Below are positions 241 through 3,062 of a stretch of 64,000 bases of DNA, piece after piece. The DNA lies in the NCBI GenBank assembly GCA_016700035.1, contig CP064998.1:199021-263020 (forward strand), in the 5' to 3' direction. The notes under the pieces were generated by a model. The model ran no database searches, was not told where the DNA came from, and saw only the letters and a list, made by a program, of their open reading frames with translations. The position numbers and the translations under genes were made by a program. This stretch comes from a bacterium. Its GTDB lineage: Bacteria > Patescibacteriota > Saccharimonadia > CAILAD01 > GCA-016700035. Position 1 is the stretch's first letter; the number at the start of each line of letters is the position of its first letter.

Positions 241-3062
241 AAATTGCCGTTGCAACCCTTAATCGATATTTGAAAAACCATCGGACTGTTGATGAGATTG
301 TTGAACTATTGGCTCGAACCGAAATTGAAGTTGAGGAGATTATTCGCTCTAATGCATTGGATCCGGGTATTATTTTAGTGAAAACCATACAGGTTGAGCC
401 TCATCCAAACGCTGATCGCCTACGGCTAGTGACAGTTAGTACTGGCACTAAAAAGATTCGAGTTGTCTGTGGTGCACCAAATGTGACGGTTGGTCAGCGT
501 GTTGGATTGGTTCAGCCGGGTGCTAAGTTGCCAGACGGGACAAAAATTGAAACCTCGAAGATTCGTGGTGAGACTTCGCACGGCATGCTTGCTAGTGCTA
601 AGGAGCTCGGTCTGAGCGATGATCATACAGGAATTCATGTCTTTGAAGAGGATCAGCATAAGCTTGGTACATCATTGTGCGACATTGTATTTTCTGGAGA
701 TGTGCTGGACATTAAGACACCTGCAAATAGGTGGGATTTTTTGAGTGGGGTAGGGATAGCGCGGGAAATTGCTGTTTATGACTCAGGGCAGGGGGTGGTG
801 GAGCCAGTTGTGGGTGAGTATGAATATAAAAAAACAGAATTTGTAAATGTCAAGGCTAGGGAAGAGAATCGTCGCTTTATGTCTGCTAAGTTGCGCGTTA
901 AGAATAATGTAAAAAGTCCTACATGGCTTGTGGATAACTTGTCCGCTAACGGCATTGCGACACACAATCCAGTGGTTGATGTTACTAATTTTGTGATGCT
1001 TGAAATGGGTCAACCAAGTCATGCTTATGATGCTACAGCACTGACTGGCCCACTCGAGGTCCGTTATGCTAGAAAAAATGAAAAAATTACCACACTTGAT
1101 GATGAGTTGCGCGATTTAGATAGTCGAGACCTAGTAATTTGTGATGCTAATGGACCGATTGGGCTAGCTGGTGTAATGGGTGGAAAAGCATCGCAGATTC
1201 AGCCTGAAACAACTGAGATTATCCTGGAGGCTGCACATTGGGATAAGGCAACTATTCGTAAGTCAGCCACCCGACACGGTTTACGCACAGAAGCGTCGGC
1301 TCGGTATGAGCGCTCTCTCCCACTCCCCTTGCCCGAAAAAGCTTTTGCTCGGCTACTCGACCTCTTGCAAGAAATTTGTGATGCCAAGATCATTGATGGT
1401 CCGTACGATCAACTTTATGGCTGGCCGTGGCAACAATTTTTAGGTGTTCGAGTTCGTCGAGCTGAGAAATTTTTAGGCATGCAAATTGATGAGGGTCAAG
1501 TTATAAAGGGGCTGCGCTCGCTCGGTTTTAAAGTAGATCACTTCTCTATCACAAAAGAACTCAAGAGCCATATCGGTAAGCCCTATCGTTGGGGTGCTAA
1601 TTATCGAGCTGATGGCGAGACAGCTTTTGATTGCTCATATCTGGTAGACAGGATTTATTCTAAGTTAGGTATCTTTGTTGGCCACACGTCATTAGGGCAA
1701 TTTCATACTGGCAGGCCGGTTGAGGTAAATCATTTAAAACCTGGTGATGTATTGTTTTATGAGGGCAAGATTGAAAAATCAGTTACCGATCATTATTATC
1801 TAATGAACCAGGATGGTGTAAAGACCCGCTATAACCTGGAAGAGCCAGAGAAAGTTGGGCACAATGGTATTTATTTGGGTGGCGGAAAGGTTGTTCAGGC
1901 AGCTCAGTATAAGTATAAGCAGGGTGATTGGGTGCTTCGAGATGAAGGCGGTGTGATTGTCTCCCCTGTTGAGGAGTTTATTGAGAATCCTGGCTATTTG
2001 GGTGCGCGTCGTTATGTGGAAAGCTTTAATCATATTTTAGCGGTTGAAGTACCATGGTGGCGCACGGATATTCGTCTGGAAGCTGATATGTATGAGGAGA
2101 TTGCAAAAATAGTTGGCTACGACTCAATGCCAGAAACGCTGCCAAAAATTGCGCCAATGCCAGAGTTGAGTCAGTCTAACTTGGTTGCGATGCGTGAATT
2201 GCGCCGTAAGTTAGTGCATATTGGTGGCACAGATGTGGCAACTTATAGCTTTATTTCAGAAGAAGATGCGCTGCGAACCAAGCTTAATCCTCAGAAATTA
2301 CCGATAGTGGCGAACCCACGTTCTCCTGAGCAAAAGTATTTACGATCCGACCTTCTGGCTAGTCATTTAGTGATGTGGCAGAAAAATAGTGTTTATAAAT
2401 TGAGTCAAATTACTTTTGAGTTCTCACGGGTTTTTCAAAGTTCAGGTAGAGATGGTGATTTACCGATAGAAAAATGGCAGCTAGCGATTAGTAGCGTTGG
2501 GTCAGATAGCCTAATGTATTTGCAGGCTTTTATGCATGGCTTTTTGTCTAGTGTAAAGCTGGAGCCAACATTTGGTGATATTGGGTCTACCGATGATAGA
2601 TTAGTGCCACAATGTTCGGCACAGATGATGCTGGGTGATACGAAACTCGGTGTGATTGGGCGAGTTAGTACACCGATATGGCGAGAGTTTAATTTGTCGC
2701 AACCAGTGAGCTTTGCAGTGTTTGATGTGGATGCCCTACTGCAACCCAGAGATTATGCAAAAGTTAGAAATTTGCCGGAGTATCAGTTAGTACAGCGTGA
2801 TATGAGCTTGGAAGTTCAGACCAATGTAGCGTGGCAGTCAATTTTAGACGCATTAAAAGACTATGACCAATTAGTAACTATCAATTACTTGGATAGTTAT
2901 TCCAATCAGGTACTCAGTAAAGCTGGGCGACGGGTGTTAACAATTAGGGTGCGCTTAGATTTGGGTGCACAACCGTCTTTGGAAGTAATCCAGGCTGCTG
3001 AATCAGATATTGTAACTAGGCTTCAGCAAGAGTGTCCGCAGGCAGATTTGCGGTTACGATAA
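237..3062 (+). CDS. pheT: Phenylalanine--tRNA ligase beta subunit carrying an inserted NlpC/P60-like domain
   Basis: N-terminal tRNA-binding domain (HPNADRLRL...GAPNV), B3/4 motif ([18 protein letters not shown]), B5 domain and C-terminal FDX-ACB-like region. 941 aa against a usual ~800 aa. Extra ~150 aa (nt ~1540-2040) has NlpC/P60 hallmarks: YRWGA...FDCSYLV...GDVLFY...HNGIYLGGG. Confidence 0.9.

Follow-up and report, generated by a model that had tools for sequence, protein, structure and literature searches.

Phenylalanyl-tRNA synthetase (PheRS) is universal, essential and heavily studied, and the locus described here raises the question of what a peptidase-type domain might be doing inside its β subunit, PheT. 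The gene lies at the start of a 64,000-nucleotide stretch of a Candidatus Saccharibacteria genome (Patescibacteria, class Saccharimonadia; assembly GCA_016700035.1, contig CP064998.1, positions 199,021 to 263,020; hereafter the window), in which one unbroken open reading frame (ORF; 237..3062, on the forward strand, as are all features below unless stated otherwise) encodes a protein of 941 amino acids (aa), the length given in an earlier note on this DNA. The protein is the PheRS β subunit: it scores 528.9 bits against the NCBIfam profile TIGR00472 (pheT_bact, cut-off 402.65), matches bacterial PheRS β chains with a Foldseek E-value of 1e-64, and has a complete set of PheT domains in Pfam, to which an NLPC_P60 domain is added. 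The earlier note had proposed that this domain sits between the two halves of the B5 domain, with coordinates that were all correct, and had offered a moonlighting peptidase, a degenerate domain or an assembly chimera as possible explanations.

Position and fold of the nested domain

Pfam matches the B5 domain (PF03484) in two pieces, the second of which (residues 596-628) begins at position 35 of the 67-position profile and runs to its end, and the domain is broken at profile position 34/35. Alignments to solved PheRS β chains break at residues 433-435 and pick up again at residue 600, a gap that corresponds to just residues 444 to 450 of the S. haemolyticus chain 2rhs_B. Both approaches agree with the proposed placement, and delimit an insert of approximately 163 aa (residues 437-599, 1545..2033) in place of a loop of about five residues, flanked by the N-terminal, helical half of B5 (residues ~398-436, 1428..1544) and by its C-terminal half (residues 600-630, 2034..2126). 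The extra segment is thus real and slightly larger than the roughly 150 aa given in the earlier note. The insertion site is a surface loop of the winged-helix B5 domain, between its helical part and its β-wing. The solved PheRS β chains used for comparison (T. thermophilus 1PYS/2IY5, E. coli 3PCO, S. haemolyticus 2RHQ and M. tuberculosis 7DAW) are 775-845 aa long and have the loop of about five residues at this position, the insert being missing from every one of them, whereas the B1/B2, B3/4, B5, B6/7 and B8 domains, the editing-site residues, the B5 acidic motif and the pheS-pheT operon are shared between the window PheT and bacterial PheRS β.

The identity of the insert is equally clear from profile, sequence and structure comparisons. 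The NLPC_P60 profile (PF00877) matches residues 447-521 with 44.4 bits (cut-off 23), and the insert searched on its own reaches 50.9 bits. The insert alone also matches 23 distinct NlpC/P60 sequences in the PDB, with the catalytic Cys and His and the FDCS, GD and GH motifs in register with the family, the best of these sequence matches being the diffocin hub hydrolase of C. difficile (E 5e-10), while its structure matches are confined to the NlpC/P60 and CHAP superfamily, a limit which also holds among Pfam families. All motifs quoted in the earlier note (YRWGA, FDCSYLV, GDVLFY, HNGIYLGGG and VVQAAQ) are present. The putative nucleophile is Cys466 of the FDCS motif (1632..1634), which opens a helix (residues 466-475) in the structure model, and the putative catalytic His542 of the GHNGIY motif (1860..1862) begins a β-strand (residues 542-548). 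A third polar triad residue is present about 12 residues past the catalytic His, in the form of Gln554 of the VVQAAQ motif (1896..1898), which lies in the next strand and aligns with the IHA/VHS segments of the PDB homologues; the majority of canonical NlpC/P60 proteins have a His here. The insert is confidently predicted to have the canonical, non-permuted papain-like arrangement, with an intact Cys-His site. A permuted domain of the C92/LRAT type (Peptidase_C92, YaeF/YiiX) was ruled out by the order of the residues, Cys before His, and by low scores.

There are four departures from canonical NlpC/P60 proteins, namely the loop between GA and FDCS, the DCSY sequence, a 32-residue hairpin at residues 509-540 and a hairpin after the third triad residue. 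Relative to the C40 D,L-endopeptidases used as comparators (C. difficile Acd24020, 7CFL; B. cereus YkfC, 3H41; E. coli MepS, 7V6S; B. subtilis CwlO and LytE; M. tuberculosis RipA-C), the stretch between GA and FDCS is longer by approximately nine residues, DCSG has become DCSY or DCSS, a loop or hairpin of 10-32 residues is added between the GD and His strands, and a long β-hairpin is added after the third residue. In the window clade the segment between GD and His is a clade-specific β-hairpin (1761..1856; strands at residues 519-523 and 529-533 in the model) with a DHYY motif (D518-Y521, nucleotides 1788-1799), retained by about 57 of 59 sequences with this segment; the hairpin is missing from the PDB homologues, the alignments of which split at this point. 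Canonical NlpC/P60 enzymes have a PR[ST]xxQ motif which contacts the D-Glu carboxylate. This is also kept in the Parcubacteria and stand-alone forms described below, whereas the window has GHTxxGQ in its place, and PR is changed to GH in most Saccharibacteria. A further difference from the C40 endopeptidases is that the window domain is unsecreted, has no signal peptide and is embedded in a cytoplasmic enzyme. A role as a secreted cell-wall hydrolase failed on the same grounds, as the domain is internal to a cytoplasmic aminoacyl-tRNA synthetase (aaRS) and Pfam identified no targeting domain. The secreted wall hydrolases that make up most of the C40 family carry an export signal and frequently SH3b, LysM or coiled-coil domains for targeting.

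Distribution and origin of the insertion

Searches for related proteins were made in 5.8 billion proteins (as clusters at 90% identity), in 1.84 billion cluster representatives and in the GTDB species genomes. The best 120 matches among the 5.8 billion proteins were all PheTs of 870-950 aa with the insert at the same site; more than 110 of these, with identities down to 39%, carry a precomputed PF00877 annotation, and several are named Candidatus Saccharibacteria. The GTDB scan used one narrow peptide pattern ([AG]FDCSYL[TIV][DS]), and the 54 species genomes which it returned are a lower bound biased towards Saccharibacteria: 53 are titled Saccharibacteria, Saccharimonadia, Patescibacteria or a non-specific "bacterium", and the best match has 89% identity across the insert. 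A Saccharibacteria-type insert (52% identity over the insert) was also seen on a 6.9-kb contig titled 'Candidatus Nanoarchaeia archaeon' (L029, DATIHE010000064.1), which is probably mis-binned or mislabelled.

Among the cluster representatives, the insertion site was shared by full-architecture PheTs of 923-933 aa and by short PheTs of 770-844 aa which lack the N-terminal tRNA_bind domain and have NLPC_P60 at the same position in B5. The short form belongs to the Parcubacteria/Paceibacteria (Yonathbacteria, Campbellbacteria, Pacebacteria), and when one Parcubacteria-type PheT was used as query, PF00877 was present in 120/120 of its best matches. A third group of PheTs with the insert was also found (P0215, P0225, P0251). 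The insertion shows vertical, lineage-wide inheritance in the Saccharimonadia and in the Parcubacteria/Paceibacteria. In a rough neighbour-joining tree of 146 NlpC/P60 domains, constructed without support values, one bipartition contains all PheT-embedded domains together with the stand-alone forms and a few small free proteins, leaving the other 58 representatives outside. The identical junction, the shared subfamily-specific loops and this bipartition together point to a single ancient insertion event. The pairwise identities of insert core and PheT backbone are weakly correlated (Pearson 0.35), and this was not used as evidence either way.

This distribution also bears on whether the insert could be an artefact, an intein or mobile element, or a recent horizontal acquisition restricted to this contig. 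The ORF is of unusual length, and the name given by NCBI to the protein record QQS27135.1, 'C40 family peptidase', could suggest a mis-join on annotation alone, but nothing else speaks for such an origin. The 90% identity cluster of the window protein includes QQS27135.1, on a contig of 916 kb, and the identical junction recurs in hundreds of independent ENA, JGI, NCBI and Logan assemblies, with further contigs of 651 and 797 kb. In addition, the ORF is continuous with its frame unchanged, the G+C content shows no break (0.41-0.46 in the insert, 0.43-0.49 in the flanks), and the length classes of the insert follow the similarity of the PheT backbones. We therefore give an artefactual or private origin virtually no credence, and the assembly chimera of the earlier note is refuted by the recurrent junction and the uniform composition. 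The window PheT contains no Hint/intein, homing endonuclease or transposase domain by Pfam, and an intein or mobile element is ruled out by this absence and by the uniform presence of the insert within clades.

Integrity of the host synthetase

The B3/4 editing domain (residues 213-381, 873..1379; PF03483, 192.8 bits) retains the editing residues N251, H262, G315/G316, E331, T351 and A353 in alignment with E. coli PheT. The corresponding motifs (the Asn of VDxTN, the His of GQPxHAxD, the GG pair, the Glu of E(A/S)A and the T-x-A of TEAS) vary little or not at all, and the same holds for D611, D617, E620 and E621 of the B5 acidic motif RxDIxxxxDLxEE, the equivalences to E. coli being derived from motifs in both cases. 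The lone deviation is at the Arg with E. coli index 243, which is Ala241 in the window (nucleotides 957-959); the Arg is kept in 87/117 homologues and is A, V or T across the clade of the window (P0001-P0026), and the change to Ala may alter editing efficiency. With the editing site and the B5 acidic motif intact, the peptidase domain is an addition and not a replacement, and a role as substitute for a lost B3/4 editing site was ruled out by the conserved editing residues. In solved PheRS the B5 domain contacts both the B3/4 helices and the α subunit (PMC12449066), which by inference places the insert near B3/4 and the α subunit.

The remaining domains are in their usual order. The B2/tRNA_bind domain (OB-fold) lies at residues 48-139 (378..653; PF01588, 51.6 bits), the B6/B7 catalytic-like module at residues 632-830 (2130..2726; PF17759, tRNA_synthFbeta, 85.7 bits) and the B8/FDX-ACB anticodon-binding domain at residues 847-931 (2775..3029; PF03147). 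The last of these scores 25.2 bits, which is under the Pfam cut-off of 31.1, and it lies inside the full-length TIGR00472 match.

Proposed catalytic activity of the nested domain

The reading that we favour, with a probability of around 55%, is that the window encodes a bifunctional PheRS β in which the nested domain would be an active thiol hydrolase (amidase) in the cytoplasm. Aminoacylation and editing by PheRS would continue, and the NlpC/P60 domain would add a second, thiol-dependent hydrolytic activity. Among the three options of the earlier note, the moonlighting peptidase is the leading candidate. That the domain is catalytically active we infer from the conservation of its residues. 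Cys466 is kept in 107/117 full-length homologues and His542 in 108/117 (approximately 91%), and F-D-C-S, G-D and H are invariant in a cross-group alignment of representatives of the Saccharibacteria, the Parcubacteria, the third group and the free-standing proteins. The NlpC/P60 core is the best-conserved section of the insert, with a mean identity to the window of 62%, compared with 60% for the B3/4 editing domain and 33% each for the catalytic-like module and the anticodon-binding domain. In pairs of close relatives with unsaturated synonymous divergence, the ratio of non-synonymous to synonymous substitution rates (dN/dS) is 0.005-0.045 for the insert and 0.076-0.085 for the remainder of the gene, which shows that purifying selection on the insert is no weaker than on the remaining PheT sequence.

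The same comparisons have to be weighed against a pseudoenzyme, that is, a structural or binding module without turnover in which Cys and His would be kept for binding or folding only, for instance to sense muropeptides or to stabilise the interface between B5 and the α subunit. There is precedent for non-catalytic NlpC/P60 domains, such as that of RipD (NCBIfam NF033743, 'NlpC_inact_RipD'), and two observations count against an active enzyme. Firstly, at least three independent lineages lack Cys or His, and have an insert shrunk to 113-160 aa which keeps the junction elements (EHFS, GARRYVxNFNHI) and the LKPGD (GD) strand well conserved; the loss of Cys/His with retention of the scaffold implies that catalysis is dispensable in some genomes. 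Secondly, the third triad position, which is Q, H or E in 47/47 hairpin-less inserts, is T or M in 29/59 hairpin-bearing inserts, including large subclades, and in 0/47 of those without the hairpin, these being raw sequence counts not corrected for phylogeny. However, T or M occurs only alongside the DHYY hairpin with its invariant Asp-His, which suggests compensation rather than decay, and on this sequence pattern the Asp or His of the hairpin may substitute for the third triad residue. With Cys and His kept in nine out of ten homologues and invariant in aligned representatives of the other groups, and with the region around them the best conserved of an insert that is itself under strong constraint, we consider a domain without turnover unlikely, if well worth bearing in mind. 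The degenerate domain of the earlier note does not apply to the window, degenerate versions being limited to a few lineages.

The substrate is a separate matter. A small γ-glutamyl-type peptide, for example the stem peptide of a muropeptide or a similar peptide obtained by salvage, would be a candidate, since the closest relatives in sequence and structure all cleave γ-D-Glu-(L)-diamino-acid bonds and since the Parcubacteria and stand-alone forms keep PR[ST]xxQ. By analogy with these enzymes we tentatively suggest a γ-glutamyl-type peptide amide, with the odds against this particular assignment; the abundant, constitutive PheRS complex would then act as scaffold. Several further points weigh against the favoured reading. 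The substrate assignment leans only on the nearest relatives, and the signature is modified, with DCSY or DCSS for DCSG, lengthening of the loop that precedes the Cys, an additional loop or hairpin ahead of the His, and GH for PR in the Saccharibacteria. A cytoplasmic D,L-endopeptidase could moreover attack UDP-MurNAc-peptide precursors, so that its specificity must differ from, or be narrower than, that of wall hydrolases; and the choice of PheRS as host protein is left without explanation. A bifunctional enzyme which combines a synthetase with an amidase is known in E. coli Gsp (glutathionylspermidine synthetase/amidase, 2IO7/3A30), but there the amidase is at the N-terminus, not nested, and both activities act on the same metabolite, whereas no such metabolic link is evident in the window PheT and the structural similarity is much lower.

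Stand-alone relatives and a possible link to tRNA

The same NlpC/P60 subfamily domain, framed by recognisable N- and C-terminal halves of B5, was also found in Patescibacteria proteins of 190-220 aa. One group of these (P0178, P0260, P0388-P0396) includes members named as Patescibacteria or Vogelbacteria NlpC/P60 family proteins, and a second group (P0191, P0252) is nearer to the Parcubacteria PheT. Examples of such genes of about 200 aa are located at L059 5001-5618 (P0178), L067 6001-6663 (P0393), L069 6001-6582 (P0396) and L062 1001-1594 (P0260). The proteins keep the Cys, the His and a His as third residue, and have lost the DLxEE motif of B5. They are encoded by complete genes in mixed settings (after secDF, before efp or beside rplK), and have the appearance of a PheT module cut out to form a protein in its own right, with at least two origins (the P0178 group and P0191/P0252). 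As the excised proteins retain both halves of B5, this suggests that B5 and peptidase work as one unit. There are also small free proteins (P0218, P0190, P0398, P0399) which have no signal peptides and share the subfamily loops. One of these, P0190 (L066 6001-6576), is encoded with fusA on one side and a MazG-like gene, tuf and rpsJ on the other; this location in a cluster of translation genes is a single instance and may be coincidence. No conserved gene neighbourhood was found for the free-standing relatives (secDF; efp; rplK; fusA...tuf), and hence no functional lead.

A hydrolase domain within an aaRS, combined with free paralogues elsewhere, is the classic pattern of an editing module, and both halves of this pattern are found here. 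The nested Cys-His domain could accordingly act on the products of PheRS, either in the proofreading of mis-acylated or D-aminoacyl-tRNAPhe or of the aminoacyl-adenylate, or as an aminoacyl (thioester) transferase, with the free B5::NlpC proteins as trans-acting counterparts in the manner of YbaK/ProX for ProRS and AlaX for AlaRS. The insert is tied to PheT across deep lineages of the Patescibacteria, the stand-alone forms keep the B5 halves as though B5 were needed for targeting, some free relatives adjoin translation genes (fusA/tuf, efp, rplK), and B5 itself touches the B3/4 editing domain and the α subunit (PMC12449066). The likeness to known aaRS editing domains (the INS domain of ProRS with YbaK/ProX, AlaRS with AlaX, PheRS B3/4 with CtdA; PMC12449066) lies in the presence of a hydrolase domain inside an aaRS, its clade-wide conservation and its stand-alone paralogues in related genomes, whereas the fold of the window insert is unrelated and the canonical editing domain of PheRS has been retained in intact form, leaving no obvious gap to be filled. 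No match was obtained between the insert and the known editing folds (CP1, INS/YbaK, AlaX/ThrRS N2, B3/4 and DTD-like). To our knowledge no papain-like or NlpC/P60 enzyme hydrolyses aminoacyl-tRNA, and the fold is thus without precedent for this reaction. Furthermore, the domain retains the peptide-amidase hallmarks of the wall endopeptidases, the free forms have no constant gene neighbourhood, genomes of the Candidate Phyla Radiation (CPR) are rich in translation genes in any case, and the stand-alone forms lack the acidic DLxEE motif of B5. On balance we regard a tRNA-linked or aminoacyl-linked role as distinctly unlikely. We would hold with even more reserve the broader proposal that the NlpC/P60 domain and the B5 framing it constitute an unrecognised aaRS-associated catalytic module (a thiol hydrolase or acyl-transferase) directed at aminoacyl-tRNAPhe, the aminoacyl-adenylate or a Phe-containing conjugate whose cleavage feeds PheRS, of which the free B5::NlpC/P60 proteins of about 200 aa would be the trans-acting form. 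If this were true, the papain-like fold would join the enzymes of translation quality control or aminoacyl transfer.

Genomic context

The pheT gene lies directly downstream of pheS, of which the window contains the 3' end (1..240, clipped by the window edge; the C-terminus of PheRS α in frame-0 translation). The TGA of pheS (238-240) and the ATG of pheT (237-239) overlap by 4 nt (ATGA), and translation of the two PheRS subunits is by implication coupled. The order is the same in the related loci L001-L004, and the pheS-pheT operon setting was always found for the insert-bearing gene, as was synteny of pheST with gyrB. In the window, pheT and gyrB-gyrA are separated by genes for a HerA/TrwB-like ATPase and a PKD-domain protein (5016-14448), and the proximity of pheST and gyrB recurs in the Parcubacteria-type and third-group loci (L001-L004), consistent with common ancestry of the region. 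The gene adjoining pheT (3201-4631) encodes a membrane-anchored protein with PG_binding_4 and YkuD L,D-transpeptidase domains, so that a peptidoglycan-remodelling enzyme neighbours the peptidase-bearing pheT in the window; this adjacency is absent from the Parcubacteria loci, where a C39-like peptidase comes after pheT.

Further downstream, the window contains the genes for 16S (16344-17864), 23S (27794-30987) and 5S rRNA (31171-31280). The 16S and 23S rRNA genes form an unlinked rRNA operon, separated by approximately 9.9 kb with protein-sized ORFs and two tRNA genes on the opposite strand (20755-20828 and 21247-21320, both on the reverse strand). The 23S match spans 3194 nt for a model of 2925 positions, and thus includes approximately 270 nt of extra sequence; the ORFs within it have no Pfam match.

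Annotation and significance

Full-text literature searches yielded no description of an NlpC/P60 domain within PheT, which agrees with the statement in the earlier note that the architecture is undescribed; the closest paper reports that many CPR PheRS β subunits lack the B2 domain (PMC5370408). The architecture is unreported rather than unseen, since both the precomputed Pfam annotations and the names given by NCBI reveal it. Copies of the gene, full-length or partial (including P0073 and P0097), are named 'C40 family peptidase', 'phenylalanine--tRNA ligase beta subunit-related protein' or 'hypothetical protein', and the annotation of CPR genomes is thereby affected in a systematic way. Such misnaming could lead to mis-scoring of pheT in metabolic reconstructions, essential-gene lists and marker-gene pipelines for the CPR, and the 163-aa insert could disturb alignments in which pheT is used as a phylogenomic marker.

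For the organisms themselves, ultra-small bacteria the physiology of which is still largely obscure, the apparently active cysteine-peptidase domain represents an as yet unexplained extension of the core machinery of translation in two of the largest CPR classes. Saccharibacteria are now cultivable and genetically manipulable. If the nested domain is a cytoplasmic peptide amidase, it would bear on the salvage of amino acids or cell-wall peptides by these auxotrophic epibionts, and if it acts on aminoacyl-tRNA, it would represent a novel kind of module for proofreading or transfer.

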